A stretch of 64,000 nucleotides of DNA from Lachnospiraceae bacterium (lineage in GTDB: Bacteria; Bacillota; Clostridia; Lachnospirales; Lachnospiraceae): the NCBI GenBank assembly GCA_017558145.1, contig JAFYWF010000116.1:4415-68414 (forward strand), read 5' to 3'. The notes under the pieces were generated by a model, which was not told the DNA's origin, searched no databases, and worked only from the letters and a program-made list of their open reading frames with translations. A program made the translations under genes and the position numbers. How positions within the stretch are numbered: the stretch's first letter is position 1; each line of letters starts with the position of its first letter. This document shows positions 1,529 through 57,033 of the stretch, one piece after another.

Positions 1529-1532
1529 TCGG

Positions 1533-1703: not shown

Positions 1704-1773
1704 ATCAAACACCTCCCCTCACCCTTAATATGCCTTTTGGCTTGTGGGTAGGGTATAAAATCTATACACTGGA

Positions 1774-2679: not shown

Positions 2680-2882
2680 AAAAACTAATTGGAGGGAATT
2701 CGTAAAATCCCCTCCAATTCTCCACATATGCAACTGGAATAATATATTCCCTTCACACATTAACTAATATATGCAATTTTTTATTTTCGTATACAACAAC
2801 TGAGAGAGAGCCCTTCGACTCTCTCTCCTTCAAAAAAATCTTACTGAGCTTTCGCTCCTTCACATTATCACTTTGTGACAAC
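2680..2882 (-). ncRNA. Candidate ~200-nt non-coding transcript directly downstream of the MazF-like gene
   Basis: Minus-strand promoter TTGACA (rc 2912-2917), 17-nt spacer, extended -10 TGgTATTCT (rc 2889-2897). Minus-strand intrinsic terminator AATTGGAGGG/CCCTCCAATT (2687-2696 / 2710-2719) followed by AGUUUUU (rc 2680-2686). Only very short ORFs lie between them, plus an internal GAGAGAGAG/CTCTCTCTC hairpin (2803-2828). Confidence 0.3.
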
Positions 2883-2950
2883 TCGTACAGAATACCAAAA
2901 AACATTTCTTCTGTCAAGCATATTTTATAATATTTTCAACCAAAAATCAA

Positions 2951-3472
2951 CTAGAAAATGTGACACTTTTTAAGAGCCTCATTTATATCATTCAAAACCT
3001 TTCCTTTAACATTTCCAATTGACGCATTAGTATCTATTCTTTGAATACTAACATTCTGTAAAGTAAGTACATTTGTCCAACGCACCATATTCTTAAATCC
3101 ATAAACCTTTTCTACTTTTACGTGATAATCTTTCTTTACACTTGGTTCTTGAGATGATAAAGGAACAACAAAAACACTTGTTGGTGTCTTTCTTAAAATC
3201 ACAGCAGGATGGCGTCCACCAAATTCATCCCCAACATTAAAACCAAACTCAATCCACACTACGGCTCCACGTTTTAATTTATCTTCTTTATCACATACAA
3301 AAGAAGGTTCATCCATAACATACTGTGTTTTTGTTGAAATCCATTGTAAATAATTATTGGTTCTTTTACGCTCATCATCACTTTCTTTATTAGTTGATGA
3401 ATATAACTTATCAATCTGGGCATCCAGATTTCCTTTACTTTTCTCTAGTTCTTCTTGCGAAATAATCTTCAT
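2951..3472 (-). CDS. PemK/MazF-fold toxin domain protein with ~65-aa N-terminal coiled extension; no adjacent antitoxin ORF
   Basis: ORF 2951..3535. RGAVVWIEFGFNVGDEFGGRHPAVILRK...VFVVPLSSQ matches the MazF pattern (GDLIWVDFDP..G.EQ.G.RPAVVLS...VP.T.Q). ATG at 3472 (MKIISQEELEKS) follows GGAGGTGAG. Confidence 0.75.
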   Translation of the reverse strand: MKIISQEELEKSKGNLDAQIDKLYSSTNKESDDERKRTNNYLQWISTKTQYVMDEPSFVCDKEDKLKRGAVVWIEFGFNVGDEFGGRHPAVILRKTPTSVFVVPLSSQEPSVKKDYHVKVEKVYGFKNMVRWTNVLTLQNVSIQRIDTNASIGNVKGKVLNDINEALKKCHIF

Positions 3473-3593
3473 TCTAATCTCACCTCCCTTGTATACACGT
3501 GCATTGATTGTATCACATACATACGAATATCTCAAACAAATTATAACATTATTTTACAAATTAAGCAGGAGCTTTTACGCTCCTGCTTGTTTA

Positions 3594-14841: not shown

Positions 14842-15954
14842 ATGGATAGAAAAATTGAACCTTATGAACTAAACAATCTAAATAATAAAAATACAAACTT
14901 TTCTCTACCCATCTCTGTATGTATTATCACTAAAAACGAGGAAAAATATATAGAAACCTGCTTAAATAAACTAAAAAAATATAATTGGGAAATCATTGTA
15001 ACCGATACCGGCTCTACAGATCGTACTGTAGATATCTGCAAGAAATATACAAACAAAATTTTTCATTTTGATTGGATTAACGATTTTGCTGCTGCCAGAA
15101 ACTTTTGTATTTCTAAAGCAAGCAACAATTGGATTTTATCCGTCGACAGTGATGAGTATTTGATCAATGAACAATCAGAGCAGGAATTATTAAAAATACT
15201 GACACCCTGCTTTTCTCATCCGGAATCTGCAGGTATGGTAGATATTCTTAATCCACAAACAAGTTCCGGACAATTAACCACAAGTAATGATCCTGTGGCA
15301 AGATTTTTCCACAAACAATATTACTCTTATGTTGGGAAAGTTCATGAACAACCTATGCCTGTCACAGAGCAAAAACCTTCCTATTTTAAATCACCTTTCA
15401 GACTTTACCATGAAGGTTATGCTAACCCGGAAATTTTACATAAAAAGGCTACACGTAACATTTCATTATTAAAAAATGAATTGGAAAAAATAACAAATGA
15501 TCCTTATTTATATTTTCAATTAGGACAAAGCTATCTATCATTAAACGATTATGAAAATGCCTATCTCATTTTCCAAAAAGGTCTTGAATTGGATGTAGAT
15601 CCAAACCTACAATATGTTAAAACTATGGTAACCTCCTATGGTTACACCATGCTTCATTTAAAAAAATACAACGAGGCTCTTTCTTTCGACTCTATCTACG
15701 ATACTTTTTCTAATTATGCAGACTTTGTCTTCCTTATGGGGCTTATTTATATGAATAATGCATTTTTTGATGAAGCAATACACCAATTTCTACATGCTAC
15801 CAAGTGTAATGAGTATTCCGTAGAAGGTATTAATAGCTATCTTGCTTACCATAATATCGGCGTTATTTATGAATGTGCTGGAATGGTTGATGAAGCAAAA
15901 AAATATTATGATATGAGCAAACTTGCTAAAGATAATGATAACTATGACAAATGA
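14842..15954 (+). CDS. GT2 glycosyltransferase with C-terminal TPR-like region
   Basis: ISVCIITKNEEKYIETCL...VTDTGSTDRT...DFAAARN...SVDSDE, then YFQLGQSYLSLNDYENAYLIFQKGLELD. It is a paralog of 50226..51302. Confidence 0.8.
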   Translation: MDRKIEPYELNNLNNKNTNFSLPISVCIITKNEEKYIETCLNKLKKYNWEIIVTDTGSTDRTVDICKKYTNKIFHFDWINDFAAARNFCISKASNNWILSVDSDEYLINEQSEQELLKILTPCFSHPESAGMVDILNPQTSSGQLTTSNDPVARFFHKQYYSYVGKVHEQPMPVTEQKPSYFKSPFRLYHEGYANPEILHKKATRNISLLKNELEKITNDPYLYFQLGQSYLSLNDYENAYLIFQKGLELDVDPNLQYVKTMVTSYGYTMLHLKKYNEALSFDSIYDTFSNYADFVFLMGLIYMNNAFFDEAIHQFLHATKCNEYSVEGINSYLAYHNIGVIYECAGMVDEAKKYYDMSKLAKDNDNYDK

Positions 15955-17143: not shown

Positions 17144-18357
17144 ACATAACTCAGCATCTCTTTTATTATCATCCCTAAATCATAATTTCTTTTTAACTTT
17201 TCATAGCCATTTTGGGCAATCTGTTTTCGCTCCTCTTCATGCTCCAAATAATAAGCTACTTTTTCCACTAAATCCTCCATGGAGGAATACATAACCAAAT
17301 CTTCTCCATCCGTAAAATATTCTGCTATCTCCGGCTGATAATTGGTGATACAAAAACCACCACAGCTTAAAATATCAAATACACGTAAGGGAATCCCTGA
17401 TTCAATCGTTTTAGAGGTAATATTTAGATTAATTTTGCTATTGTGAAAAACATATGGCATCTCTTTTTCATAATTTACAAATCCTTTTTCTCGGATATTT
17501 AAACCATGCAAAAAAACTGGTAACGTGGAGCCGGAATATAAATCCACCTCAAAATGTTCTCCTAATACTCTTAATACCTTTTCTCTTTCTCTTGCAGACA
17601 CTTCCATACCCACAGTATCTGCGGCCATCTGAGCTAGATCCTGGTGATACATATCACCCAAACTAAGCTTGCATTTTTCTATGATTTCATTCATGATATC
17701 GTCGGGCAAAGCCTCTTTAATAAAATTATAACCATATACCTTTAGCTGAGATTCTACAAGACCGTCCGTAAATCCTTTGCAATAATCCGACAATACCACA
17801 TTCCGTAATCGATTCTTCTTTTCACTGTATAAATTACCTACAAATGAGATATCACTTTCATACTTCTTTTGAATTTCATCCTTTATCATTTTAGGATTAA
17901 TTTTTTCATTACTTAAATCTATACTTGTATTACTAAGGATTGTCACCAATCTTTCTGCATCTGCTGCCAAAGGAAAATGGATACAGTGCTTTGCTCCTAA
18001 CTGTTGCAAATACAAATTATACTTTCTGTCAAAACAGAAAATATAATTCATTTCGTTTCCAATTGTCTTAGAATATAAGGTATACATAGGACAATCATAT
18101 ATCCAGGACAAATAGGGAATTTGATTCATCTCACATAACATAGAGACCAAAGGAAAATAATCGAAACTAAATACTGCTTGAAACTTTTCTGCATGCAATA
18201 CTTGTAAAAATTCAAAAGCAAATTCTGCATCCGCATGATAGTCTTTTATTTTCTTTGCAAAAACACAATATTCTATTTTATTTTGCTTTAATATTTTTTC
18301 CAACCCGGGCTCACTATTGGAACCGAATTGGTAGAATAGTATTTTCTTCAAAATCAT
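17140..18357 (-). CDS. CgeB-family glycosyltransferase, copy 2 (convergent with copy 1, 4-nt overlap)
   Basis: It has the same conserved blocks: PLAADAER, DISFVGNLY, KINLNITS and GIPLRVFDILSCGGF. The C-terminus EMLSYV* compares with copy 1's EMLSYF*. Confidence 0.6.
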   Translation of the reverse strand: MILKKILFYQFGSNSEPGLEKILKQNKIEYCVFAKKIKDYHADAEFAFEFLQVLHAEKFQAVFSFDYFPLVSMLCEMNQIPYLSWIYDCPMYTLYSKTIGNEMNYIFCFDRKYNLYLQQLGAKHCIHFPLAADAERLVTILSNTSIDLSNEKINPKMIKDEIQKKYESDISFVGNLYSEKKNRLRNVVLSDYCKGFTDGLVESQLKVYGYNFIKEALPDDIMNEIIEKCKLSLGDMYHQDLAQMAADTVGMEVSAREREKVLRVLGEHFEVDLYSGSTLPVFLHGLNIREKGFVNYEKEMPYVFHNSKINLNITSKTIESGIPLRVFDILSCGGFCITNYQPEIAEYFTDGEDLVMYSSMEDLVEKVAYYLEHEEERKQIAQNGYEKLKRNYDLGMIIKEMLSYV

Positions 18358-18513: not shown

Positions 18514-19521
18514 CTATAAATTATTGATTTGTTCTTGGAATTGTTCTATACTTCCTGCTTCAATCGCAATTCTATGGAAGGATACTAAGACATTATCATC
18601 TTTCTCTTCGCTAATTCGTTCTGCAATATATTTTGGTAGTACGCCAAATTTTTCACATACTTCAAAAACCATAGCTTTTAGAGTTTCTGTCATTTGTGTA
18701 TCCTTTTTCTGCAGCTCGGCATCCAGGCTCTGCAGCTCAGCATCCTTACTCTGCAGCTCGGCATCCAAACTCTGCAGCTCAGCATTTAAACCCTGCAATT
18801 TTGAGTCTTTCTTCTGTAATTCATCAATCATATTCTTTAATTCTTCATCTTTTGCTTTTACCAGCTTATCGACAGACAGATAATGCATATATCTCGCCTC
18901 CACATCCCGATCTTTTTTTAAGATCTTAATTCGATTATGAATTTCTTTTAATTTTTCATTTGTGTTTTGTGCCACATATTCATCGGTAGAATTATTCAAA
19001 TAACCTAAAAAATCTACTAAAATTTTAGGAACTTCTTGCGTATTCTTACCTTTTGTGCTCAAAAAAATTCTTTTTGCACCATCATTTAAATGAATTTTTC
19101 TTTCCTCGCATTGCATTGTAAAAGTATATCGATATAATTCCTCATCAAAAGGATCAAAATTACAAATAAAAATAACATAAACCGGTTTTAAACTCTTATA
19201 ATCTTCACCTTTTTTCAAATTCCCAATATCAATTTGGGCTTGATAAAATCGACTTCTAAGAGGTAAATTATGCTCATTCTTGTTTTGCATTTCCAAATTA
19301 TAAGAAAGTTTGGTTACAGAATCTTTTGCATATACATCCAATCGAATATATTTTAATTCTGAGTTATACTTTTTTGTATACTCGACTTTTATATCCAACT
19401 CACCAATCTTTTCTTCAATGATACATTCCAACACCAATCGACATGTAACAGGATCCTCCAATGCCGCCGGAAAAAGAAACTCATCACTTAAATTAAGTTG
19501 CTGAATATTACTATTACTCAT
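18514..19521 (-). CDS. Rpn-family recombination-promoting nuclease / PD-(D/E)XK 'putative transposase', copy 1
   Basis: The N-terminal half (...IRLDVYAKDSVTKLSYNLEMQN...PLRSRFYQAQ...PVYVIFICNF) fits the PD-(D/E)XK transposase-like family. The C-terminal region is a coiled coil with heptad tandem repeats. Confidence 0.7.
   Translation of the reverse strand: MSNSNIQQLNLSDEFLFPAALEDPVTCRLVLECIIEEKIGELDIKVEYTKKYNSELKYIRLDVYAKDSVTKLSYNLEMQNKNEHNLPLRSRFYQAQIDIGNLKKGEDYKSLKPVYVIFICNFDPFDEELYRYTFTMQCEERKIHLNDGAKRIFLSTKGKNTQEVPKILVDFLGYLNNSTDEYVAQNTNEKLKEIHNRIKILKKDRDVEARYMHYLSVDKLVKAKDEELKNMIDELQKKDSKLQGLNAELQSLDAELQSKDAELQSLDAELQKKDTQMTETLKAMVFEVCEKFGVLPKYIAERISEEKDDNVLVSFHRIAIEAGSIEQFQEQINNL
18709..18798. 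repeat. 21-bp tandem repeat (4 full copies plus a partial one) inside the Rpn copy-1 coding region
   Basis: ctgcagctcRgcatccNNNct units at 18709, 18730, 18751 and 18772, with a partial copy at 18793. They encode (L/K)DAELQS heptads (LNAELQSLDAELQSKDAELQSLDAELQKKD). Confidence 0.9.
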
Positions 19522-36530: not shown

Positions 36531-36646
36531 AAAACATCGAAAAGGCATCGAAACCGAAGCCTTTTTTCCCCTTTCAACAATATTAAATCACTTCCTTGTG
36601 ACAACTTATCTCAAAGTTTTGCTTCCTTGCATCTATTCTACTTTTT
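36528..36646 (-). ncRNA. Conserved 5' leader, copy L1 (twin GGA-loop hairpins plus a terminator-like hairpin)
   Basis: In RNA sense: UGC-AAGGAA-GCA (rc 36620-36631), UCAC-AAGGAA-GUGA (rc 36588-36601), and GGCUUCG-GUUU-CGAUGCC followed by UUUU (rc 36540-36561). It is homologous block-by-block to 41455-41618. Confidence 0.5.
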
Positions 36647-36674
36647 ATATCGGAAAGTTTTTATTAATTCTTTA
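36647..36674 (-). promoter_or_regulatory. Sigma-D/sigma-28-type promoter (TAAA-N17-CCGATAT), copy L1
   Basis: Minus strand: TAAA (rc 36671-36674), 17-nt spacer, CCGATAT (rc 36647-36653). It lies just downstream of a terminator. Confidence 0.6.
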
Positions 36675-39921: not shown

Positions 39922-41454
39922 TTACAGATTTTCTATCCGTACCTCTCTATCATTTCTTATTTTGTCCAAAATCTCTATTCTTCTGACATATAAGTCTTTT
40001 AATGAATTATAAGTTTCTTTATACAATTCATACATATATATGTATTTACGGTGATTTTCCAAGTTTGGCTTTATAATCATTCTAATTAATGCAAATTTAT
40101 TAGCTGCTTCTTTCATATTCTGATAAACACCCTGACCTGCCAATACCATCATTGCTGCACCTGATGCTGTAGTTTCGAATTCTGCCAATACCATAACATC
40201 TCTTCCCAAAACATCGGCTTTAATTTGAGATATCAGGTTTATTCTCGCCAATCCCCCTGATAAACGTACAGATTCTATGTCCACTCCTGTTTCCTTTATT
40301 GCATCAATAATATCCAAGTCAATAAAGCCTGTACTTTCAAAAACGGCTCTTGTCATATCTTTACGTGTATGCATTCTTTCCAAGCCAAAGAAAACACCTC
40401 TGGCATTATTATCCCATACCGGTGTTCTCTCTCCCAATAAATATGGTAAGAAAATTAGACCTTTGGCTCCTATTTCAGATTCATTTGCATCTTTTTCCAT
40501 GATTTCATATGGATATTGTTCTCCCTGATAATAACATTGCTTTACCCATTCTATCAATCCTCCCCCTAAATTATTGGATCCTCCAACTATATTGGCATCT
40601 TCCTGATAGAATGGAACATTATATATCTTATTACTATTAACTAAACCTTTTTTCTTGCTTAAAGCTCTAAAAACAGTTACTGTGCCGGATACATCACTAG
40701 CTTCTCCTTCTTCTGATACACCACTGCCTATAAATGAACATATTGCATCATACGAAGTTACAACGACTTTAATATCTTGATTTGAATTTATTTTCTCCGC
40801 TGTATTCCGATTAATCTTCCCAATACAAACTCCTGTATCAGTTACTTCCGGTAACTTATTTACAGATATTCCTAATTTTTTTAGAAAAACTTCAGGATAC
40901 ATCTTTTTAGCCAAATCATAATGATACTTTGTTGCATTTAAATAATCTGTAACACATTCTCCGCAAAGTTTATAGATCAAATAATCATTAGGTGTCATAA
41001 AATAACGTGTTTTTTCAAACATTTCCGGTAAATTTCTTTTAACCCATAATATTTTAGGTAACATAAGACTTACAGACATATCTAATCCGGTATTCTTTTT
41101 AACTTCTTCAAATTCTTTCATTTCTGAAATCATTTGAACTTCTTTTTCTGCACGCTTATCTGAAACCATAAACGCTTTTCCTAACGGATTTCCATTAGAA
41201 TCAACACATACCAAACAAGATGCAGATGTTGTAACTGTTATATATTCTATCTTGACATTTCCGGCATCTTTTAATGCTTTTCTCATTACGATTTCAGCCT
41301 TTTCCCACCATTCCGCAGGATCCTGCTCAACCCTTTTATCATTTATTGCTGTATTTATTGCTATAGCTGCACTTCCGAGTTTTAAACCATTCTGATTAAA
41401 AATAATACATCGTATACTTTTTAATCCCATATTAATAACCATGACATTATTCAT
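39922..41454 (-). CDS. FGGY-family carbohydrate/polyol kinase
   Basis: ORF 39922..41472, whose track start is TTG. ATG at 41454 follows AAAAGGA. VMVINMGLKSIRCIIFNQNG...QDPAEWW, and a C-terminal GGLARINLISQIKADVLG. Confidence 0.8.
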   Translation of the reverse strand: MNNVMVINMGLKSIRCIIFNQNGLKLGSAAIAINTAINDKRVEQDPAEWWEKAEIVMRKALKDAGNVKIEYITVTTSASCLVCVDSNGNPLGKAFMVSDKRAEKEVQMISEMKEFEEVKKNTGLDMSVSLMLPKILWVKRNLPEMFEKTRYFMTPNDYLIYKLCGECVTDYLNATKYHYDLAKKMYPEVFLKKLGISVNKLPEVTDTGVCIGKINRNTAEKINSNQDIKVVVTSYDAICSFIGSGVSEEGEASDVSGTVTVFRALSKKKGLVNSNKIYNVPFYQEDANIVGGSNNLGGGLIEWVKQCYYQGEQYPYEIMEKDANESEIGAKGLIFLPYLLGERTPVWDNNARGVFFGLERMHTRKDMTRAVFESTGFIDLDIIDAIKETGVDIESVRLSGGLARINLISQIKADVLGRDVMVLAEFETTASGAAMMVLAGQGVYQNMKEAANKFALIRMIIKPNLENHRKYIYMYELYKETYNSLKDLYVRRIEILDKIRNDREVRIENL

Positions 41455-41618
41455 TGTTAATTTCCTTTTCAATTATAATCAGTCTCTTTTCAAAATTCTA
41501 CTTTTGTAAAAGTAAAAAGACATCGAAAATCGATGCCTTATAAATCATACTAATATTATATCACTTCCTGTGATACTCTTATACGAGTTTTGCTTCCCTG
41601 CATCTTATTCTGATAATA
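41455..41618 (-). ncRNA. Conserved 5' leader, copy L2 (twin GGA-loop hairpins plus an intrinsic-terminator-like hairpin)
   Basis: In RNA sense: UGC-AGGGAA-GCA (rc 41591-41602), AUCAC-AGGAA-GUGAU (rc 41560-41574), and GGCAUCGA-UUU-UCGAUGUC (rc 41519-41537) followed by UUUUUACUUUU (rc 41507-41518). The SD AAAAGGA and the ATG at 41454 follow. Confidence 0.5.
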
Positions 41619-41645
41619 ATATCGGAAATTTTGCGAATTAGCTTA
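41619..41645 (-). promoter_or_regulatory. Sigma-D/sigma-28-type promoter (TAAG-N16-CCGATAT), copy L2
   Basis: Minus strand: TAAG (rc 41642-41645), 16-nt spacer, CCGATAT (rc 41619-41625). Confidence 0.6.
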
Positions 41646-44458: not shown

Positions 44459-46495
44459 CTATACATCATACAAATCATGATAGCATCTATATTTAATTCC
44501 CATACTATCTAATTGTGCTCCAATTGGTCCATAATATTGGTTTGCAATAAACACCAATCTTTCTTTCTCAGGAACTTCTAAAATTGCTTTCGGTGATTTA
44601 ATAATTAATCCAAATCTTGTCGTGTTCCATATGGAAGAATCGTTATCCACTAAAAATTCTGGTCTATATTTAGTACCCCAAATTTCTGTAAAATTATACG
44701 CCATAACTCCAGCCCCAAACAAAATAATCTTTTTATTTGGCTGATTCAAATACTCTTCCAATCGAATAACCTCTTCCCATTCATTTGCTATACTTCCTAA
44801 CAAAGAAATATAGGGCATGTGTAAATCATTTGGTGCTTTATTAAAGATTCCTTCTGTGTTAAATATCAAACGTCCTGCATAATGCTGTCTTCTGAGTTCG
44901 CCGATGATTCTATGCCAATCTGTGGTTTTATTTCCTCGTCCCATAGTATAGGTATATGGTATCTGCCTATCATTATGAATTCCATCATTATCATTTATAT
45001 GTACTAATTTAAGTAAATTGCCTGCCTCCTCTATCATAGTACGAAGGTTCTTGGATAATACATTCCCATTACCAACATCAATACTAATTCCAATACATTC
45101 CTTATCACAGATGCGATTAATCTGCCTTGCTATTCTTTTTAAATTAGTTATCTCTGATGCTTCACTGCAAATATATTCTTGTTGCTTAGAGATCACATAC
45201 CCATTTTCAAGATAGATTTCTATTTCCTTATCTATCAAGAGATCAACAAAACTTTCCAAGATATATGAAATAATACGTGTAGAGGCTACTCCTTCTGTAT
45301 TGATTACAATATAGCTTACACCCATGTCCTCCGCTATCATTACTGCATGAAAAAACTGTTCTTCATCTAAATCAATTCCCTTTAAGATTATCCCTGTTGG
45401 AACCGGCGTGCTATTCTGAGAGATTACTCCATCCTGCCATTGTTTATATTCATCCAAATCTTCATAGTTTATTTCCGTTTCTGTAAATCCCTGTTCACAT
45501 AAGAATGCCGGAACATCTTCCCTCCACACATGTTTCATATAAGGGATTCCTGTTTTAAATTTTCTATCCTTCATTACTCCAATACTTTCTCCTGTCATTA
45601 GTTGTAAATTCTTATCTGCTTTTTCTATGGATTCTGAACCTAAGATAAATTCTCTTCTGAAATCATAATAGAAAGGCGACTCTTTTGCATAATCCCACCA
45701 CAATTGCTCCATTTCAAAATGTCCAATTTTAGGATTCCAAGGTTTTCCCGCCAAAAAATGTACCAGCGTTACTTTTTCTTTCGCTTCTTTGTAACCAACA
45801 CCAAAATTGTGTGCAAATCTGGCATATAAATTATATTTAACAGTTTCTACGAATTTTACATCTTTCCAATGAACATAATTCAACAAATCCTGATCCGGTG
45901 TTTCCAACCGATAATCATACTTTTGGGCTACTTCCATGTATGCCTTTAATCCATATTTTTCTCGAAGTAGCTTTAAGTTCATTAATAATACACCAGAATT
46001 AAAATAGGTGAATCCTTCCCTTACATGTTCTTTGAACATTTCATCACGATATTGAAACACACCAATACCGGAAAATGGTTCCGGACAAGCACACAAAGCA
46101 TTTCCATTAAATTCTGTATGATATAGTTCTTTTAAGGAATGATTTACAACAATATCTACATCCAGATACAAAATTCTCTCTATTTCCTCCGGTAATATTT
46201 CCGGAAGCACCAATCGATAAAAAGACTCCACCGGCCAATTTGCATATTCTGTACATTCTTTTGGAAAATAAGATGGTTCAATCTGCAACCAATGCACATA
46301 TCCCCCATAGGATTGTATCAAGTTTTCTAAACAATGTTTTTCTTTTTCAATCAGTTCGCTTTGCAATAGATAAATATGCATCTGAACATCTTTACCTTGG
46401 TTTTCAAATAAAGACATCAACATTACATAAGTATATCTGACATAATTTCTATCCAATGCAACTGCAATATTCATTCTGCTATCATCCATGTGCAT
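44459..46495 (-). CDS. Triple fusion: GT8 glycosyltransferase - xylose-isomerase-like TIM barrel - Rossmann-like FGxG...DN..W module
   Basis: N-terminus MNIAVALDRNYVRYTYVMLMSL...LYLDVDIVV...FNSGVLLMNL (GT8). Middle LVHINDNDGIHNDRQIPYTYTMGRG...RLIFNTEG, parallel to the 43517 protein. C-terminus KKIILFGAGVMAY...LVDNDSSIWNTTRFGLIIKSP. Confidence 0.7.
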   Translation of the reverse strand: MHMDDSRMNIAVALDRNYVRYTYVMLMSLFENQGKDVQMHIYLLQSELIEKEKHCLENLIQSYGGYVHWLQIEPSYFPKECTEYANWPVESFYRLVLPEILPEEIERILYLDVDIVVNHSLKELYHTEFNGNALCACPEPFSGIGVFQYRDEMFKEHVREGFTYFNSGVLLMNLKLLREKYGLKAYMEVAQKYDYRLETPDQDLLNYVHWKDVKFVETVKYNLYARFAHNFGVGYKEAKEKVTLVHFLAGKPWNPKIGHFEMEQLWWDYAKESPFYYDFRREFILGSESIEKADKNLQLMTGESIGVMKDRKFKTGIPYMKHVWREDVPAFLCEQGFTETEINYEDLDEYKQWQDGVISQNSTPVPTGIILKGIDLDEEQFFHAVMIAEDMGVSYIVINTEGVASTRIISYILESFVDLLIDKEIEIYLENGYVISKQQEYICSEASEITNLKRIARQINRICDKECIGISIDVGNGNVLSKNLRTMIEEAGNLLKLVHINDNDGIHNDRQIPYTYTMGRGNKTTDWHRIIGELRRQHYAGRLIFNTEGIFNKAPNDLHMPYISLLGSIANEWEEVIRLEEYLNQPNKKIILFGAGVMAYNFTEIWGTKYRPEFLVDNDSSIWNTTRFGLIIKSPKAILEVPEKERLVFIANQYYGPIGAQLDSMGIKYRCYHDLYDV

Positions 46496-46566: not shown

Positions 46567-46594
46567 TAAAGTTTTATCGTTTTCTTTCCGATAT
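46567..46594 (+). promoter_or_regulatory. Sigma-D/sigma-28-type promoter (TAAA-N17-CCGATAT) for the plus-strand glycan operon
   Basis: TAAA (46567-46570), 17-nt spacer, CCGATAT (46588-46594), 34 nt upstream of the ATG at 46629. Confidence 0.55.
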
Positions 46595-46628
46595 ATTTAA
46601 AAATGTAAGAAAGAAAAAGTATGTATTT

Positions 46629-47660
46629 ATGGCAAAAGTGAGTGTGATTATTCCCTGCTTCAATGCACAGTTTTATATAGACAGATGCCTTACCTCAGTT
46701 ACTTCCCAATCCATCGGAATAGATTCCTTAGAAATCATATGTGTTGATGATGCTTCTACGGATAATACCTGGGAAAAACTGCAGCAATGGGAACAGCGAT
46801 ATCCCAATCAGATTATGATTCTTCATTTTGATACCAATTCCAGACAAGGAACTGCCCGTAATGTAGCATTACAATATGCCACTTCTCCTTGGATAAGCTT
46901 CGTGGATTCCGATGACTGGATTGAGCCTGATTATTACCAAAAGCTACTATATTGTGGAGAACAGACAGCTTCTGATATCGTAATCTGTAAGACTATACGG
47001 GATTCTTCTTTAGAATTATCATTTTTAGATAATACTAAAACAGGTGAACCGAATCGTTTTATGGTGATAGACTCTTTGGAAAAACGCAAACTATTCTTAG
47101 TGCTTCGCAGCATGGATTCTCTTGCTTGTGCAAAGATTGTTCGTAAAGATTTTCTGTTAGAAAATCAGATTTTTTTTCCGGAATACCTTACCTACGAAGA
47201 TACCTATTGGGGCTCTTTGCTTCATCTGTATACAAACAGGGTGTATTTTTTAGAAGAAACTCTTTATCATTATTATATTAATGAACATTCTTCTGTTTTA
47301 CAGTCTAACTCGGAACATCATTTGGATCTTCTTACGGTACAGATGCGGTTATGGAACGAATGGGAAGAACGAGGCTTTCTAGAAAATTTCAGAGAAGAAT
47401 TAGAATATGATTTTCTTCATTCCTGTTATCTTCGCTTTTTGAAGGTTCTGGTTTACCGCTACCAAACACCCCCTTTATCACTGTTTCTTTTATTACAGCA
47501 ATTGATTCAGAAACGAATTCCGGATTTTTTAAATAACTCTTATTTACAACAAATAGAGCAACCGGATTTTTATAAAATATTATTTCAAGCAATAACATTA
47601 CCCATGAATAAGGAATCGTTTATGGAATTTACTACATCTATCCAAAGAATTGGAATGTAG
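46629..47660 (+). CDS. GT2 glycosyltransferase (paralog of 51317..52360)
   Basis: VSVIIPCFNAQFYIDRCLTSVTSQSIGIDSLEIICVDDASTDNT...SFVDSDDW. Confidence 0.85.
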   Translation: MAKVSVIIPCFNAQFYIDRCLTSVTSQSIGIDSLEIICVDDASTDNTWEKLQQWEQRYPNQIMILHFDTNSRQGTARNVALQYATSPWISFVDSDDWIEPDYYQKLLYCGEQTASDIVICKTIRDSSLELSFLDNTKTGEPNRFMVIDSLEKRKLFLVLRSMDSLACAKIVRKDFLLENQIFFPEYLTYEDTYWGSLLHLYTNRVYFLEETLYHYYINEHSSVLQSNSEHHLDLLTVQMRLWNEWEERGFLENFREELEYDFLHSCYLRFLKVLVYRYQTPPLSLFLLLQQLIQKRIPDFLNNSYLQQIEQPDFYKILFQAITLPMNKESFMEFTTSIQRIGM

Positions 47661-47661
47661 T

Positions 47662-47806
47662 TGTAACAGTTCAACCATGACCAATCACTACGCTGATTGG
47701 TCATGAGAGAAAGTGTAAATATAAAGAAAGCAGCACCCAGCTCGCTGAAAGCGACTTTAAATCTGGGTGCTGCCCGTAACAGGAAGCCGGAGGCTGAACT
47801 GTTACA
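47662..47806 (+). other. GC-rich ~145-nt structured insert: three perfect 11-12-bp helices in a three-way-junction layout (MITE-like element or unknown cis-RNA)
   Basis: P1 is tgtaacagttca (47662-47673) / tgaactgttaca (47795-47806). P2 is catgaccaatca (47676-47687) / tgattggtcatg (47694-47705). P3 is gcagcacccag (47730-47740) / ctgggtgctgc (47763-47773), with an inner tcgc-tgaaa-gcga. TGTAG lies on both flanks (47656-47660, 47807-47811). Confidence 0.6.
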
Positions 47807-47831
47807 TGTAGGTATTACAAGGAGGTAAATT

Positions 47832-48812
47832 ATGTTACAATTCGAACCATCTTATTTTAACGCAGAAGACCGCGATGGTTTCCACATCAAATCTATGGTA
47901 AAACGCTGCTGGGCTGTTCAGCTTAAGGTTCTATCAGAAATTGATGCTATCTGCAAACGCCACAATATTATGTATTATGCTGAATGTGGAACTCTTTTAG
48001 GCGCTGTCAGACATGGTGGCTTTATTCCTTGGGATGACGATTTAGATATTGGTATGCGACGCGTGGATTATACCCGCTTTCTTCATTATGCAAAAACAGA
48101 ACTTCCGGAAGGATATTCTATTATTAATGTAAAGGGAAATGGTATCCAATTAATTTGTAGAGTTGTAAATACCCTTTTTATTACCATGAATCCTAAACAA
48201 CTAGAAGAATTCTATGGTTTTCCCTATATTGGCGGTATTGATATTTTTATAACCGATAATATTCCTAAAAACAAAAATGAAGAAAATGTTCAACTGGAAT
48301 TATTGGCCGCCGTTAACAGCTTAGCCATTAATTGGGATAAAAAATTTTCTAATACACAATCTGATAATCTGGATGTAGAATCTGTAGAAAATGCTTCTAT
48401 GGAAGAAAAAATGGAATTAGTCAAACAAATTGAAGAATTATGTAATATAAAATTGGATCCAAACAAATCCATGAAACGTCAGCTACTTATTCTATCAGAT
48501 CAGATTTGTGCCATGTATTGGGATGACGAACCAAACGAAGTTTCCTTAATGCCTGATTTGGTGCTTAAAAGAGAGTTTCGTTTTCCGGTAAGCTATTATG
48601 CCTCTACCATAGATATGCCGTTTGAAAATACTACCATTCCTGTACCGAAAGAATATGATAAAATTTTACGAAAACGATATGGTGACAACTATATGACTCC
48701 AATCCAATGTACAAGTTCTCACAATTATCCTTTTTACTGTCATCAGGAAAAACGTTTATTCGCTGAATTTGAAAAACAGAATCTACCAATTCCTGCTTAT
48801 TTGAAAGAATAG
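47832..48812 (+). CDS. LicD-family phosphotransferase, copy 2
   Basis: AECGTLLGAVRHGGFIPWDDDLDIGMRRVDYTRF. Confidence 0.85.
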   Translation: MLQFEPSYFNAEDRDGFHIKSMVKRCWAVQLKVLSEIDAICKRHNIMYYAECGTLLGAVRHGGFIPWDDDLDIGMRRVDYTRFLHYAKTELPEGYSIINVKGNGIQLICRVVNTLFITMNPKQLEEFYGFPYIGGIDIFITDNIPKNKNEENVQLELLAAVNSLAINWDKKFSNTQSDNLDVESVENASMEEKMELVKQIEELCNIKLDPNKSMKRQLLILSDQICAMYWDDEPNEVSLMPDLVLKREFRFPVSYYASTIDMPFENTTIPVPKEYDKILRKRYGDNYMTPIQCTSSHNYPFYCHQEKRLFAEFEKQNLPIPAYLKE

Positions 48813-50225: not shown

Positions 50226-51302
50226 ATGTTACCAATTTCTATCTGCATGATTATGAAAAATGAAGAAAAGAATCTGAAGACATGTTTGGAATCTGTCAAA
50301 TGCTTAAATTGTGAATTAATTTTAGTAGATACCGGTTCCACAGATTCTACTCTGGAAATTGCAAAAAAATATACGGATAAAATCTATCATTTTGATTGGA
50401 TTCATGATTTTGCAGCTGCAAGAAATTATTCTCTTTCACTTGCTATCAATGATTGGGTACTTGTTTTAGACTGTGATGAATCCATATCTTCCATAGATAT
50501 GGATTCTCTTTCTATGTTTATGGATATTCACCCTGATAAAATAGGTCTTCTTTCCCGTCGTAACCATTATGAAATGAACCAAAGCGATTCCGTATATACA
50601 GATCAAGTTGAACGTTTTTTTAATCGCAAGCTATATGAATACCGTGGTGAAGTTCATGAACAGGTAGTACCAAAAGCTTCCGCTATTTCTTTAAATCTTG
50701 GAAAAAAAGAATCGATTAATCTGTATTTAGAGCACTTTGGATATGTAGGCTCTCCGGAAGAATTACATGCAAAAGCTATGCGTGATGCTGAGATACTGAA
50801 AATAATGCTTGTAAAAAATCCTAATGATCCCTATCTCTATTTTCAATTAGGACAAAGCTACAATATGCTTCATGATGATGAGAAAGCTTTGTATTATTAT
50901 GATAAAGGACTTTCCTTTGATGTAAATCCCGAAGCAGAATATGTTCAAATGATGGTCATAGGATATGGATATGCCCTACTTCATTTAGAACGATATGAGC
51001 AGGCGCTGGGATTAGCTAATATTTATGATGTCTTTGCCGTATCCGCTGATTTTATTTGCCTTATGGGTTTAATCTATTTACGCACCGGTAATCTACTTAG
51101 TGCTATGGGTGAATTTTTAAAAGCAGCTTCCCATCCGGTTGCTCATATGGAGGGGGCCAACTCTTTTATTCCTTATTACAATATGGGCTGTATCAATGAA
51201 TTGTTGGGGGATTATAATATGGCACTTTCCTTATATAAAAAATGTGGTTCTTTTCCTATGGCTTTATCTAAGATTCAAGAATTAGAATCTAAAATACAAT
51301 AA
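50226..51302 (+). CDS. GT2 glycosyltransferase with C-terminal TPR-like region (paralog of 14842..15954)
   Basis: ISICMIMKNEEKNLKTCL...VDTGSTDST...DFAAARN...LDCDE, and YFQLGQSYNMLHDDEKALYYYDKGLSFD. Confidence 0.8.
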   Translation: MLPISICMIMKNEEKNLKTCLESVKCLNCELILVDTGSTDSTLEIAKKYTDKIYHFDWIHDFAAARNYSLSLAINDWVLVLDCDESISSIDMDSLSMFMDIHPDKIGLLSRRNHYEMNQSDSVYTDQVERFFNRKLYEYRGEVHEQVVPKASAISLNLGKKESINLYLEHFGYVGSPEELHAKAMRDAEILKIMLVKNPNDPYLYFQLGQSYNMLHDDEKALYYYDKGLSFDVNPEAEYVQMMVIGYGYALLHLERYEQALGLANIYDVFAVSADFICLMGLIYLRTGNLLSAMGEFLKAASHPVAHMEGANSFIPYYNMGCINELLGDYNMALSLYKKCGSFPMALSKIQELESKIQ

Positions 51303-51316
51303 AGGAGGATTCTTCT

Positions 51317-52360
51317 ATGGCCGCAATTAGTGTAATCATACCTTGCTACAACGTTTCCTCCTATATCGATAGATGCCTTACTTCCATTACTTCACAAACC
51401 ATAGATCTTTCCCTCCTGGAGATTATTTGTATCGATGATGCATCCACCGATGATACCTGGCAAAAGCTTCAAACATGGGAAGCAAAGTATCCGGATAATA
51501 TTATGATTATCCAATGTAAAGAAAACGGACGGCAGGGAAAAGCCCGCAATATTGGCTTATCCTATGCTTCTGCTAATTGGATTGCTTTTATAGATTCCGA
51601 TGATTGGATAGAACGTGACTATTTTCAAAAAATGTATGCTGCTGCCTGCAGCACTGCTGCTGATTTGATTACCTGTGGAAATGTACGTGATTTTTCTTAC
51701 CAATTACAATATCGACATGATAACAATTATGACTATTCCAAAGATGCTGTTTGTGGCAAATATATTACAATAGACTCTGAAGAAAAGAAAAAACTATATA
51801 TCCGTATGATGAGTTCTGACTTAACCGCTTGGGGAAAACTAATCAAAAAGGATATTTTATTAGACAATGAAATCTTTTTCCCCGAAGGACTGGCTTACGA
51901 AGATAACTATTGGGGAACTTTATTACATTTTTATGTTAATAAAATTTATGAAATAGACCTTCCCTTATATCACTATTTTGTAAATGAGAAATCTACCATT
52001 CTTTCCATGAATGCAGATTATCACGAAGATTTCCTAACTGTCCAATTACTAAAATGGAATACTTTTTTGGAACGTGGATTTTTTGAACAATATTCAGAAG
52101 AAATTATCTTTGATTTTCTTCACGCATGTTATTTAGATTACCTTAAAATCATTTGCTTAAGATTCGATCCACCATCCTTTAGTAGATTCCTACTACTAAA
52201 AGAAATTATATTAACACACATTCCTAATTATTCTCACAATAAATACTTTGAACAAGGCTTCACAGAATTCCAACACATGCTAATAGACATGCTTCGATTA
52301 CCTGTGAACAAAGACCAATTTCTTGAAATTTCCGGATATATTAAACTTCATGGAATTTAA
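51317..52360 (+). CDS. GT2 glycosyltransferase (paralog of 46629..47660)
   Basis: ISVIIPCYNVSSYIDRCLTSITSQTIDLSLLEIICIDDASTDDT...AFIDSDDW. Confidence 0.85.
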   Translation: MAAISVIIPCYNVSSYIDRCLTSITSQTIDLSLLEIICIDDASTDDTWQKLQTWEAKYPDNIMIIQCKENGRQGKARNIGLSYASANWIAFIDSDDWIERDYFQKMYAAACSTAADLITCGNVRDFSYQLQYRHDNNYDYSKDAVCGKYITIDSEEKKKLYIRMMSSDLTAWGKLIKKDILLDNEIFFPEGLAYEDNYWGTLLHFYVNKIYEIDLPLYHYFVNEKSTILSMNADYHEDFLTVQLLKWNTFLERGFFEQYSEEIIFDFLHACYLDYLKIICLRFDPPSFSRFLLLKEIILTHIPNYSHNKYFEQGFTEFQHMLIDMLRLPVNKDQFLEISGYIKLHGI

Positions 52361-52634: not shown

Positions 52635-53495
52635 TTAGCCAAGTAATGCCAATACACCCTGATTAGACTGGTTAGCCTGAGCCAACATAGACTGTCCTGC
52701 CTGAGCAAGAATGTTGTTGTTAGAGAATCTAACCATTTCAGCTGCCATATCTGTATCACGAATCTGGCTTTCTGCTGCTGTTGTATTTTCTACAACGTTG
52801 TCTAAGTTTCTAATTGTGTGTTCAAGACGATTCTGGATAGCACCGAGTTCAGAACGCTGTGTAGAAACTGTTTCAAGCGCTTGCTTAACATAATTGTTAA
52901 GGCTGGAGAATTTACTTGTTGTAAATACTGTTGTAGAAGCTGTAATGCTTGCCTGTGTATAGAATGTAGAAATAGAAGAATAGTAAGATGTAGATAAACT
53001 ACTACAACTCATAGAATCAATAGTAATCTTAATATACTGTCCTGTTTCTGCACCAACCTGAAGACCGATATTAGTGAATTTACCATCTAATAAGCTCTTT
53101 TCGTTGAAAGTTGTTGTAGATTTAACTCTGTCGATTTCGCTCATTAACTGCTGAACTTCCATAGCGATGTAGTTACGGTCTGCTGTTGCAAGAGTTCCGT
53201 TTTCACCTTTAACTGCTAATTCGTTCATACGCTGTAACATATCATGTACTTCAGTTAAAGCACCTTCTGCTGTCTGTACACAAGAGATACCGTCAGATGC
53301 GTTTGCAGAAGCCTGTGTAAGACCTCTAATCTGTCTTCTCATTTTTTCAGAAATAGCTAATCCAGCTGCGTCATCTGCTGCACGGTTAATTTTGTAACCG
53401 GAAGATAATTTTTCTGTGGATTTTGCCTGTGCACCTGTTGTGATGTTAAGCATTCTCTGAGAATTCATTGCTGTAAGATTGTGTTGTACTACCAT
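52635..53495 (-). CDS. fliC: Flagellin (short, 286 aa; D0/D1 core with a minimal Ser/Thr/Tyr-rich central segment)
   Basis: N-terminus MVVQHNLTAMNSQRMLNITTGAQAKSTEKLSSGYKINRAADDAAGLAISEKMRRQIRGLTQA. C-terminus LGAIQNRLEHTIRNLDNVVENTTAAESQIRDTDMAAEMVRFSNNNILAQAGQSMLAQANQ. It has a strong SD (GGAGG). Confidence 0.95.
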   Translation of the reverse strand: MVVQHNLTAMNSQRMLNITTGAQAKSTEKLSSGYKINRAADDAAGLAISEKMRRQIRGLTQASANASDGISCVQTAEGALTEVHDMLQRMNELAVKGENGTLATADRNYIAMEVQQLMSEIDRVKSTTTFNEKSLLDGKFTNIGLQVGAETGQYIKITIDSMSCSSLSTSYYSSISTFYTQASITASTTVFTTSKFSSLNNYVKQALETVSTQRSELGAIQNRLEHTIRNLDNVVENTTAAESQIRDTDMAAEMVRFSNNNILAQAGQSMLAQANQSNQGVLALLG

Positions 53496-53650
53496 AAATT
53501 TACCTCCTTGTATTACTGGACAACTCCTTTTGTCTCAGTTAAAAATTATTTAAATAGTTTTTAATTTATATTAACTACAAGTCAAAAGCTTTAAGTCGGG
53601 CCCTGACGAAAGGCCTATGACTTGTAGTTAGTATCACCTTTGTATATTTT
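53496..53650 (-). ncRNA. Flagellin 5' UTR with CsrA-type sites and a GC-rich palindromic insert
   Basis: In RNA sense: a 10-bp perfect-stem hairpin CUACAAGUCA...UGACUUGUAG (53575-53627), then ACAA-AAGGAG-UUGU with GGA in the loop (rc 53520-53533), and 8 nt later ACAAGGAGGUA overlapping the SD (rc 53501-53511). Confidence 0.55.
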
Positions 53651-53676
53651 ATATCGGAAGGTTTTTTTATTACTTA
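53651..53676 (-). promoter_or_regulatory. Sigma-D/sigma-28-type promoter of the flagellin gene (TAAG-N15-CCGATAT)
   Basis: Minus strand: TAAG (rc 53673-53676), 15-nt spacer, CCGATAT (rc 53651-53657). The -35 context GGTTAAG is the same as in copy L2. Confidence 0.7.
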
Positions 53677-53796
53677 ACCCCTTTTTTTTAATTTTTTAAT
53701 AAATTTTTATTCGGCCTCATTTTTCAAATTAAATGCAACCCCTACTTCATCCAAACTAGAAGTTACTGTTTTATTAGCAAACTTATTTCATCCAAT

Positions 53797-54717
53797 TCAA
53801 TCTATATGATACAATACTCTATCTTCTTCTGGTATCATCAAAGCCTCCATTGCTTTTTCCAATGTAAGATTCATACTTTTCATAAGATTTTCCAGATTTT
53901 CCTTGATTGCCTCTTGTCTTCCTTCTTGCCTTCCACTTTCCTTATGATCATTCCATGCTTTACACATATCAAATCTCTCCCCTTCTTCTGTTTTTACTTT
54001 ATATTTGTTAATGTTTATATTAATACCTAAAACTCCAAAAATAGCTCTCATAGATTCTTTATCCAGCAAATAACCATTCATGTATACACTTATTATCTCA
54101 TTCATTTTGTTTTCGTCTTTTGAATTTAATAATAATTCAAATATAAAGCGATTTTCTGTTTTAAATTGAGAAAAATCTTTATAATCATGATAGTCAAAAA
54201 GATTTAGTCTGTAATTTGTTACAAATGGTTGCAACCTTTCATCCATCTCCAATAACTCATATAACGATCGTGCTCCATCCCAAGCTTCATTTTTTCCTAA
54301 ATATAAGATTAATGTGATTATTGGTTGAAATTTTTCATTTTTTCTCATTTGACTTAAAAATTCATTCTTAGTAAATTTATATCTAGCATTAATCCATTTC
54401 CTATAAGAATGTTTTTGCTGCTTTAGATAGCCAACCGCTTCTTCCAGCATGACTCTTAACACCATTCTGTAATCTACATAAGATTGATTTTCTAAAATAC
54501 AAATTGAAATTTTCTGTCCTTTCCACCTATAAACCTTGTCTCTTATCACCTTTATAGCTTCTTCATTTTTTTCATGATGCACCAGTTGAGAATCTAATTC
54601 TTCCAATTCCTCTTCCCTGATAATTTGTTCGCCATGAAACATAACTCCATTAATCATATCCGCAAAACGTCTTTTATCATCAAAATAGTCGCTTTGCCAC
54701 AAATCTTTTTTTCCCAA
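53797..54717 (-). CDS. Rpn-family recombination-promoting nuclease / putative transposase (YhgA-like), copy 2; TTG start
   Basis: DYFDDKRRFADMINGVMFHGEQII..., ISICILENQSYVDYRMVLRVM, and a C-terminal GRQEGRQEA repeat followed by a helix. These are typical of this family. Confidence 0.7.
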   Translation of the reverse strand: MGKKDLWQSDYFDDKRRFADMINGVMFHGEQIIREEELEELDSQLVHHEKNEEAIKVIRDKVYRWKGQKISICILENQSYVDYRMVLRVMLEEAVGYLKQQKHSYRKWINARYKFTKNEFLSQMRKNEKFQPIITLILYLGKNEAWDGARSLYELLEMDERLQPFVTNYRLNLFDYHDYKDFSQFKTENRFIFELLLNSKDENKMNEIISVYMNGYLLDKESMRAIFGVLGINININKYKVKTEEGERFDMCKAWNDHKESGRQEGRQEAIKENLENLMKSMNLTLEKAMEALMIPEEDRVLYHID

Positions 54718-56070: not shown

Positions 56071-57033
56071 TCAAATACCCAACTTCTTTAGTATCTCCAT
56101 ACATTTTTCCAGAGTCATACTTAATTCCAATTTTTCTTGATTCAGCTTTTCAATAGTGTCATTCATAAATCCACTGTCCACTTCATTTAACACCACATCT
56201 TCTAATAATTGTATATAAAATGGAGTCAGCTTGGCATACTGCCACCAGAATTTCTCCGTATTGAAATGCAATGCTTCATGCTGCCATGGTTTTCTTCCTG
56301 CAAAATGAATGATAGAAGTATTTTCTTTTACCCAATCGTAATCAAGTCCTTCATTAAAGGCAAGTTTTGCGAAAAGATTATATTTTTTTTCATCCAAATA
56401 ACGTACATCACCATGATATACATAATTTAATAAATCTTGATCTTGTGCTCCTATATTTAATTTTAGACCCATTTGAACAAAAAATTCCAAATTTACATTT
56501 TCTCTCATCTTATCCAAATTCATCAAAAGAATTCCGGCATTAAAGTATTGAAAATTCTCTTGTTTCATATGTTCTTGGAATAATTCATACTGCTTCTGCA
56601 TTAATCCTCCGGTTAATACACTCATATCCGGACAAACACACAAAGATTTTCCCTGAAAATCCGTATGATAGAAATCCCAAATAGACTCCTTCACAATCAC
56701 ATCTACATCCAGGTATAAAATTCGATTTATTTCTTTTGGCAATATATCCGTTAATGCCAAACGATAATATACTTCCAACGGCCATTCCTCTGTGTGAGGA
56801 AGCTCTTGTGGAAACCATTCTTTTTCCATTTTCACCAAATATATTATTTGCTTATATTTTTCTGCCAAATCATGAAAGTGCTGTAACTCTTTCTCTGCTA
56901 CTTGTCCATACAGTACAAAAACCTGTACCTCTCTATCTTTATGATTTTCAAATACCGATGTCAGCATAACGCATGCATATTTTACAAATTTTTCGTTTAC
57001 CGCAATGGCAATATTCATTCTCTTTTGTTCCAT
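56071..57033 (-). CDS. GT8 glycosyltransferase (paralog of the N-domain of 44459..46495)
   Basis: MNIAIAVNEKFVKYACVMLTSVFENH...LYLDVDVIV...FNAGILLMNL. Confidence 0.85.
   Translation of the reverse strand: MEQKRMNIAIAVNEKFVKYACVMLTSVFENHKDREVQVFVLYGQVAEKELQHFHDLAEKYKQIIYLVKMEKEWFPQELPHTEEWPLEVYYRLALTDILPKEINRILYLDVDVIVKESIWDFYHTDFQGKSLCVCPDMSVLTGGLMQKQYELFQEHMKQENFQYFNAGILLMNLDKMRENVNLEFFVQMGLKLNIGAQDQDLLNYVYHGDVRYLDEKKYNLFAKLAFNEGLDYDWVKENTSIIHFAGRKPWQHEALHFNTEKFWWQYAKLTPFYIQLLEDVVLNEVDSGFMNDTIEKLNQEKLELSMTLEKCMEILKKLGI

Follow-up and report, generated by a model that had tools for sequence, protein, structure and literature searches.

Does a hairpin in the leader of a carbohydrate-kinase operon end part of transcription before the first gene is reached, and is that ending regulated? 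The question is raised by a leader, here called L2, that precedes an FGGY kinase gene in a 64-kb window (the whole stretch of 64,000 nucleotides analysed, from contig JAFYWF010000116.1 of a Lachnospiraceae bacterium), which is a very large flagellin glycosylation island. A second leader of similar sequence, L1, precedes a glycosyltransferase gene of the GT1 family in the same window. We tentatively prefer, as the most probable of the explanations weighed below, that L2 and more weakly L1 carry a leaky promoter-proximal intrinsic terminator in a leader driven by a SigD/sigma-28-type promoter, and that they would give rise to an RNA with a CsrA-type site as well as to a read-through mRNA.

The L2 hairpin and its counterparts in other leaders

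The first-pass annotation of this DNA had reported in L2 a stem with a run of U behind it. Sequence and position of both stand as reported, a consensus terminator scan lists them independently, and the sequence elements of the sigma-D-type promoter and of the two GGA hairpins upstream were likewise confirmed (Table 1). The core stem, GGCAUCGA/UCGAUGUC at 41537-41519, extends to 10 pairs, 4 of them G-C, and is followed by UUUUUACUUUU, with the U-tract directly 3' of the stem. Transcription is predicted to start at about 41611; the hairpin begins about 20 nucleotides (nt) past GGA hairpin 2, and its 3' end lies 64 nt before the ATG at 41454 and about 50 nt before the Shine-Dalgarno (SD) sequence. 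Folded alone, it reaches -11.5 kcal/mol, a stability found in 0 of 200 dinucleotide shuffles, which served as controls (z -6.1). The hairpin is about half as stable as two gene-end terminators nearby, those after the flagellin gene (-20.6 kcal/mol) and after the glycerophosphotransferase gene (36729-36702, -18.3 kcal/mol), which fits partial termination, and we regard it as a credible terminator of moderate strength.

Table 1. Positions in the window of the elements of leaders L1 and L2 (CM, covariance model; SD, Shine-Dalgarno sequence)
Feature	Position	Strand	Sequence and remarks
L2 SigD/sigma-28-type promoter	41619..41645	-	-35 TAAG 41645-41642, 16-nt spacer, -10 CCGATAT 41625-41619
L2 GGA hairpin 1	41591..41602	-	UGC-AGGGAA-GCA; about 10 nt from the predicted transcript 5' end; CM R1 70.3 bits
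L2 GGA hairpin 2	41558..41576	-	G-UAUCAC-AGGAA-GUGAUA-U, 7 pairs
L2 terminator-like hairpin	41508..41539	-	AAGGCAUCGA-UUU-UCGAUGUCUU (41539-41517) and U-tract UUUACUUUU (41516-41508)
FGGY kinase SD and ATG	41452..41468	-	SD AAAGGA 41468-41463, ATG 41454-41452
L1 SigD-type promoter	36647..36674	-	TAAA 36674-36671, 17-nt spacer, CCGATAT 36653-36647
L1 GGA hairpin 1	36620..36631	-	UGC-AAGGAA-GCA; CM 71.2 bits
L1 GGA hairpin 2	36587..36602	-	GUCAC-AAGGAA-GUGAU
L1 terminator-like hairpin	36531..36564	-	AAAGGC-U-UCG-GUUU-CGA-U-GCCUUU (36564-36541), U.U mismatch, then UCGAUGUUUU

The layout of L2, with a SigD-type promoter, two GGA-loop hairpins 21-31 nt apart, a terminator and then the first gene, was found also upstream of cysQ in an Acetatifactor metagenome-assembled genome (L002/L021) and in a Logan contig (L022). 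The Acetatifactor copy came from a scan with the exact pattern of hairpin 1 and hairpin 2, the Logan copy from following cysQ homologues, and the MptE/Maf-type and C2185-like proteins encoded around both mark these regions as flagellin glycosylation islands of Lachnospiraceae. In Acetatifactor the promoter TAAA-N16-CCGATAT precedes the hairpins UGC-AGGGAA-GCA and CAC-AGGGAA-GUG and the terminator AAAGG-C-AUCC-GUAG-GGAU-A-CCUUU, followed by UUUCGUU (tail UUUUUUCGUU), which stands about 35 nt before a GGAGG SD, a 29-codon open reading frame (ORF) and then cysQ. This ORF, MKVVASVPSMVILLMEYIWLRKEGRTLWK (L021 9921-10010), has a good SD and overlaps the start of cysQ by 10 nt, an arrangement that may reflect translational coupling. 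The L022 leader has a deviant promoter (TAAT-N16-TCGATAC), the hairpins AGC-AUGGAA-GCU and UGC-AUGGAG-GCA and a terminator, followed by an SD and cysQ. Its terminator stem, AACCUUUUA...UAAAAGGUU and then UUUUUAUAU (U-tract UUUUUUAUAU), reaches -17.6 kcal/mol and has no sequence in common with the other leaders, which suggests that it is the position and function of the terminator that are conserved, not its sequence. In L2, Acetatifactor and L022, 5-6 U follow straight after the stem. The distance from GGA to GGA is 29 nt in L2, 31 nt in L1, 22 nt in Acetatifactor and 21 nt in L022.

A descriptor of this layout (two GGA-loop hairpins 12-45 nt apart and a terminator within 60 nt), run over both strands of 227 kb (454 kb), gave five matches. 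Three of them have a SigD -10 box upstream, and these are L2, Acetatifactor and L022 themselves; the remaining two are promoterless and lie inside coding regions. The stems change in a compensatory manner: UGC/GCA in hairpin 1 of L1, L2 and Acetatifactor is AGC/GCU in L022, and CAC/GUG in hairpin 2 is UGC/GCA. A four-way MAFFT alignment placed hairpin 2 of L022 on hairpin 1 of the other leaders, and for this reason the covariance model was built from three sequences only (L1, L2 and Acetatifactor).

That the hairpin is a chance palindrome with Ts behind it in an AT-rich leader is the least probable of all the explanations considered. The simple terminator scan does have a high background: in 12 kb it lists 6 sites where 3.5 are expected, and in 18 kb 14 sites where 7.6 are expected. 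However, our own scan of the whole window on both strands (128 kb) for hairpins of -8 kcal/mol or lower with a U-rich tail found 30 comparable sites, which amounts to about 0.02 expected per 100-nt leader, and the hairpin occupies the same relative position in three lineages, in one of them with a non-homologous stem. Pairs of GGA hairpins occur in at most 0.05% of dinucleotide shuffles of the leaders and once per 6.2 kb of background.

The L1 hairpin and the start of the GT1 gene

L1 shows 76% identity to L2 across about 120 nt. The equivalent hairpin that the first-pass annotation described in L1 is present, with the core GGCUUCG-GUUU-CGAUGCC at 36561-36544 and UUUU at 36543-36540, but its quality as a terminator is another matter: the stem contains a U.U mismatch, the energy of -11.6 kcal/mol, which includes the A/U extension, corresponds to a z of only -2.7 against shuffles, and the interrupted U-tract UUUUCGAUGUUUU fails the consensus terminator scan as well as both of our own scans. 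We consider it a marginal terminator. The same hairpin had been thought to swallow the first in-frame ATG of the gene (36548). That ATG does lie inside the hairpin but is not the start codon, which is found at 36530-36528: the NCBI protein has 375 amino acids, and homologues begin with MNK/MKK..ILQFPIANS. The ATG at 36530 has no SD within 35 nt. The only purine-rich stretch nearby, AAAGGGGAAAAAAGG, is situated about 35-45 nt upstream (SD-like GGGGA at about 36570-36566), with the hairpin in between. GGGGA, hairpin and AUG could form a split ribosome binding site joined by the hairpin, and in L1 a role in translation may carry more weight than termination.

This raises the more general question of whether the hairpins terminate at all in vivo. 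They might instead be stabilisers or processing sites of the 5' untranslated region (5'-UTR), or in L1 a spacer that joins GGGGA to the SD-less start, while the GGA hairpins would influence how stable the mRNA is, working from its 5' end in the manner of CsrA at flhDC. L1 fits such a role best with its weak U-tract, its start codon and the place of its hairpin; the hairpins of L2, L1 and Acetatifactor are modest (-9.6 kcal/mol in Acetatifactor, up to -11.6 kcal/mol in L1), and CsrA bound to two sites near the 5' end stabilises flhDC mRNA (PMC7652899). We nevertheless think this decidedly unlikely: L2, Acetatifactor and L022 have good U-tracts directly behind the stem, the idea of a spacer is inapplicable to these three leaders with their canonical SDs 35-60 nt further on, and the hairpin of L022 matches gene-end terminators in strength.

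Read-through and the question of a switch

No convincing separate promoter was found between hairpin and start codon in L2, L1, Acetatifactor or L022, so that the operons must be read through the hairpin. A second L2 promoter before the ATG was considered and rejected: it consists of a lone TATAAT 17 nt upstream, its -35 box matches at 3 of 6 positions, it has no TG extension and the scan does not list it. The L1 promoter is directly preceded by the strong terminator of the glycerophosphotransferase gene, and the start codon comes straight after the L1 hairpin, with no room for another promoter; the L1 operon would therefore be expressed by read-through only.

According to the leaky-terminator reading that we prefer, transcription would start about 7 nt past CCGATAT, and the first 65 nt or so would fold into two short hairpins with A(N)GGA(A/G) loops, 21-31 nt apart, whose geometry would be that of a bipartite, high-affinity site for a single CsrA dimer. 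About 20 nt further on, a moderately stable hairpin and its U-tract would halt part of the polymerases. Two products are predicted: a SigD-dependent leader RNA of about 100 nt bearing the CsrA-type site, and a read-through mRNA of the flagellin-glycan operon, the level of which would be lowered by the terminator. The short RNA could titrate CsrA. If read-through is regulated, a protein on or near the hairpins would be responsible, with CsrA as the obvious candidate; CsrA itself is controlled by FliW and by flagellin export. Judged by sequence, a CsrA-binding small RNA derived from a 5'-UTR, with constitutive partial read-through, is an equally good description as an attenuator. A bolder version, which appears unlikely to us, would see in the terminated, SigD-driven leader of about 100 nt an RNA dedicated to CsrA, the first of its kind in a Csr system of the FliW (Firmicute) type, either titrating CsrA or having its terminator read through only when FliW sequesters CsrA, or both.

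The first-pass annotation had proposed an attenuation switch. In its CsrA-controlled form, occupancy of the GGA hairpins would decide whether the terminator forms or is effective and would couple the glycan operon to the FliW-CsrA-flagellin checkpoint, on the one hand by refolding of the RNA (hairpin 1 or 2 against the 5' arm of the terminator), or alternatively by direct action of the protein on the paused polymerase, as is the case for r-protein L4 at the S10 leader. The order of promoter, two GGA hairpins, terminator-like hairpin and gene on which the proposal was built is real in L2 and conserved in two further lineages. Mutually exclusive folds are the part that found no support. Equilibrium folds are modular and consist of hairpin 1, hairpin 2 and the terminator, the helix of which has a probability of 0.96-1.0 in L2, L1 and L022 and 0.67 in Acetatifactor; it is favoured over the alternative by 7.4-10 kcal/mol in the former three leaders, and only in Acetatifactor is the alternative cheap (2.7 kcal/mol). 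If the 3' arm is left out to imitate nascent RNA, the fold of minimum energy pairs the 5' arm of the terminator with part of a GGA hairpin in all four leaders (GAUGC:GCAUC in L2, GAAGC:GCUUC in L1, GGAUGC:GCAUCC in Acetatifactor, GGAGG:CCUUU in L022). This is what a CsrA-sensitive antiterminator would be expected to look like, and CsrA binding could in principle free the arm. However, the pairings comprise 5-6 base pairs, they stabilise no more than pairings with shuffled upstream sequence do (p 0.10, 0.64, 0.09 and 0.44), and the partner differs from leader to leader. The antiterminator, and with it a switch encoded in the RNA, is for these reasons unsupported by our folding models, and control of read-through by CsrA would need action of the protein itself. 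A precedent for CsrA at the level of transcript elongation exists at pgaA, where it works via Rho (PMC7652899, PMC4052769). Intrinsic terminators are absent from the mechanisms that a review of CsrA gives, namely SD occlusion, Rho-dependent termination at pgaA, 5'-end protection at flhDC and translational activation (PMC7652899). The terminator of L022 would be strong enough to require relief. Taken together, we hold a CsrA-controlled switch to be possible but doubtful.

A leader peptide was also considered and rejected. A short frame without an SD begins with an AUG in the 5' flank of hairpin 1, and its lengths and stops are inconsistent: MQGSKTRIRVSQEVI then stop in L2 (15 codons, 41604-41557 (-)), MQGSKTLR then stop in L1 (8 codons, 36633-36607 (-)) and, in Acetatifactor, about 70 codons that extend past the terminator (L002 7121-7336). 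The conserved MQGS is the hairpin 1 sequence itself, and the frame is probably incidental.

The distribution of the leader is patchy. The nearest relative (ENA ERZ1767473 NODE_791, here L019), in which the kinase is 88% identical, has a gap of 42 nt in place of L2, and the kinase homologues at 88%, 73% and 70% identity all have short gaps without an L2 leader. GT1 homologues at 57-62% identity have no leader, and at these as at the more distant kinase loci the genes run together. Among four cysQ loci examined, the two described above have it (L021 and L022) and two do not (L023 and L024). The absence of L2 from the closest relative indicates a modular element, and it seems that the leader has been gained, lost and copied within these islands.

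Several of these observations weigh against the leaky terminator. The strength of the terminator in L022 speaks for read-through that is regulated in this leader and not simply leaky, and together with the strong leader terminator of L019 described below it hints that leader terminators of these islands may need active relief. The hairpins of L1 and Acetatifactor are weak (z -2.7 and -2.3), and the U-tract of L1 is poor. Just four instances are at hand, three of which are homologous, and the covariation is suggestive but statistically not strong. The exact pattern of hairpin 1 and hairpin 2 gave no further true copies, with one true match (Acetatifactor) and one spurious match in the genome-contig collection and four matches, all spurious, in the metagenome-contig collection. 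Finally, the element must be dispensable for the operon, since the nearest relative has no leader at the kinase junction.

L019 contains a leader of another kind at 18140-18340, in which a SigD-type promoter (TAAA-N16-TCCGATAT) is followed by about 100 nt without any GGA and by a terminator, AAAGCUUUGCAC-UUG-GUGCAAAGCUUU then AUUUUAU (-18.9 kcal/mol). A GT2/RgpF gene pair comes about 40 nt further on. In islands of this kind it may be a general rule that a SigD promoter has a leader terminator behind it. A GGA-less SigD leader with a strong terminator (L019 18140-18300) would suit a dedicated processive antiterminator, either a NusG paralogue resembling LoaP, UpxY or RfaH or some other factor, for which the upstream hairpins would be the recruitment site, in line with other long operons for polysaccharides or secondary metabolites. 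In the LoaP paradigm, the dfn leader of Bacillus velezensis, a small protein-binding hairpin and a NusA-dependent intrinsic terminator likewise precede a long Bacillota operon (PMC12691694). The LoaP hairpin is of the UNCG type and the loaP gene is adjacent, whereas the leaders here have GGA hexaloops (PMC12691694). A LoaP-type system was rejected for this window: no UNCG hairpin occurs in the leaders (the terminator loops are UUU, GUUU and GUAG), and the search of the window ORFs of at least 150 amino acids brought up no NusG-like domain. We consider a factor of this kind very unlikely.

CsrA-type sites, related systems and the island

The GGA hairpins have the loops AGGGAA, AGGAA, AAGGAA, AUGGAA and AUGGAG on stems of 3-7 base pairs, so that A(N)GGA is always displayed in a hairpin loop, and the spacing of 21-31 nt between these candidate sites is within the bridging distance of one CsrA dimer, for which about 18 nt is the optimum (PMC4894983). 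Loops and spacing fit a bipartite CsrA site. No site overlaps the SD or the start codon in L2, where both hairpins are located at least 100 nt upstream of the SD. Hairpin 2 has the form (C)ACA(A)GGAAGUG, and in L2 (ACAGGAAGU) it resembles BS1 predicted for fliC of C. difficile, TGACAAGGATGT, which its authors derived from the CsrA consensus binding sequence (PMC8523840). The gating by CsrA suggested earlier is based solely on resemblance of motifs, and neither csrA nor fliW was found within the window; flgM-csrA clusters are usual in motile Lachnospiraceae (PMC3720852). Rfam gave no match at gathering score in the whole window, and permissive scans of both leaders returned noise, the best score being 10.9 bits for PrrB_RsmZ against a gathering score of 44.

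The promoters follow the pattern TAAA-N15-17-(G/M)CCGATA(T/A) in gene orientation, as TAAG-N16-CCGATAT in L2, TAAA-N17-CCGATAT in L1 and TAAA-N16-CCGATAT in Acetatifactor, with L022 deviating; the sigma-28 consensus of Lachnospiraceae is TAAA-N16-17-MCGATAa (PMC3720852). Observed are the sequence elements, the stability of their folds, their departure from chance and their presence in further genomes; we infer the use of these promoters by SigD, as well as termination, CsrA binding and regulatory effect. A fourth SigD-type promoter of the window, TAAA-N17-CCGATAT at 46567-46630 (+), has a leader of about 35 nt without hairpins and would drive a divergent GT2-LicD operon; the nearest relative has an equivalent divergent region (L019 5623-5767).

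Two other leaders of the island carry a GGA hairpin together with an SD-overlapping site, as in hag, which makes control of the island by CsrA plausible. The flagellin leader (53495-53677 (-)) has a SigD-type promoter (TAAG-N15-CCGATAT, 53677-53651), a long 5' hairpin ACUACAAGUC...GACUUGUAGU, another hairpin of the sequence GACAA-AAGGAG-UUGUC and, over the SD, a GGA site, which is the classical arrangement of hag and fliC. The LicD gene (47832-48812) has a highly structured leader of 172 nt (47660-47832 (+)), in which an AGCC-GGA-GGCU hairpin is enclosed in a GUAACAG/CUGUUAC stem; its SD region, ACAAGGAGGUAAAUU, is the same as that of the flagellin gene over 15 nt, and the layout is that of a bipartite CsrA site of the hag type. 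Covariance model R1 found this leader as well (47781-47832 (+), 24 bits, E 0.003).

The leaders combine elements of known kinds, namely leader terminators, small RNAs (sRNAs) derived from 5'-UTRs and CsrA leaders. The flaA leader of C. jejuni likewise has a sigma-28 promoter and two GGA hexaloops about 21 nt apart, probably bound by one CsrA dimer, and it titrates CsrA in a FliW-type Csr system without CsrB-like sRNAs (PMC4894983). In contrast to L1 and L2, the flaA sites flank the ribosome binding site of flagellin and no terminator is present; sites of the L1/L2 type keep a distance of at least 100 nt from the SD, have a terminator behind them and precede genes of glycan biosynthesis. B. subtilis hag and C. 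difficile fliC (BS1 hairpin, BS2 over the SD) share the SigD promoter and a GGA hairpin of the type ACAAGGA(U/A)GU (PMC8523840, PMC7652899). L1 and L2 differ from both in the missing SD-overlapping site and the added terminator, and simple occlusion of the ribosome binding site can therefore not be the mechanism. In the case of E. coli MotR, a promoter of the flagellar sigma factor yields a short terminated RNA as well as read-through into motAB-cheAW (PMC10578931); MotR, however, is a gammaproteobacterial sRNA that base-pairs dependent on Hfq, has no GGA hairpins and shows no sequence relation to the leaders. The pgaA leader of E. coli is comparable in that CsrA on two leader sites controls elongation into a polysaccharide operon (PMC4052769, PMC7652899), but there CsrA unmasks rut sites for Rho, whereas the leaders here have an intrinsic hairpin with U-tract and unsupported refolding. 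CsrB, RsmY and RsmZ are each transcribed from a promoter of their own and combine GGA-loop hairpins with an intrinsic terminator; they carry 5-22 GGA hairpins, in contrast to two in our leaders, which are not free-standing genes. To our knowledge, sRNAs of this type are known only from Gammaproteobacteria.

Glycosylation of flagellin must match the pace of flagellin synthesis, and we know of essentially no description of what controls the large, variable glycan islands in gut Clostridia. If CsrA does act at these leaders, the glycan operons would stand under the same export-sensing FliW-CsrA checkpoint as flagellin, by a mechanism new for CsrA. Should read-through of the terminator depend on CsrA, flagellin-glycan synthesis would be coupled to flagellin export at the level of transcription elongation, and CsrA would for the first time be seen to act at an intrinsic terminator. 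FliW-type Csr systems would also gain an RNA component, so far shown only for the flaA mRNA of Campylobacter. As an element, the leader is short and modular, and it apparently moves between operons.

The genes behind the two leaders agree with the earlier description of a CDP-polyol set after L2 and a glycosyltransferase/amino-sugar set after L1. The L2 operon (41454-36741) encodes the FGGY kinase, an Fe-alcohol dehydrogenase, an IspD/TarI-like nucleotidyltransferase and a TagF-like glycerophosphotransferase, and the L1 operon two GT1/GT4 enzymes, a methyltransferase, a GFO/IDH/MocA oxidoreductase, a DegT aminotransferase and a hexapeptide acyltransferase. The kinase has an identical counterpart in the NCBI hypothetical protein IKW30_12795 [Lachnospiraceae bacterium] and in an ENA contig. 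The flagellin gene itself (52635-53495 (-)) is flanked by dozens of glycosyltransferases, LicD proteins, cytidylyltransferases, methyltransferases and sugar-modifying enzymes.

Genes of mobile elements are found in and beside the island. A PD-(D/E)XK transposase gene (18514-19521 (-)) contains a 21-nt tandem repeat (18700-18804), a YhgA-like transposase gene (53797-54717 (-)) is situated directly upstream of the flagellin promoter, and genes for a Mob_Pre relaxase, an integrase and a MazF-like toxin are located at the left end (660-5111). Three pairs of diverged direct repeats (about 71% identity; 14983-15155 and 50307-50479, 46080-46237 and 56627-56784, 46628-46714 and 51316-51402) stem from paralogous glycosyltransferase genes (GT2-TPR, GT8 and GT2) that were duplicated inside the island.

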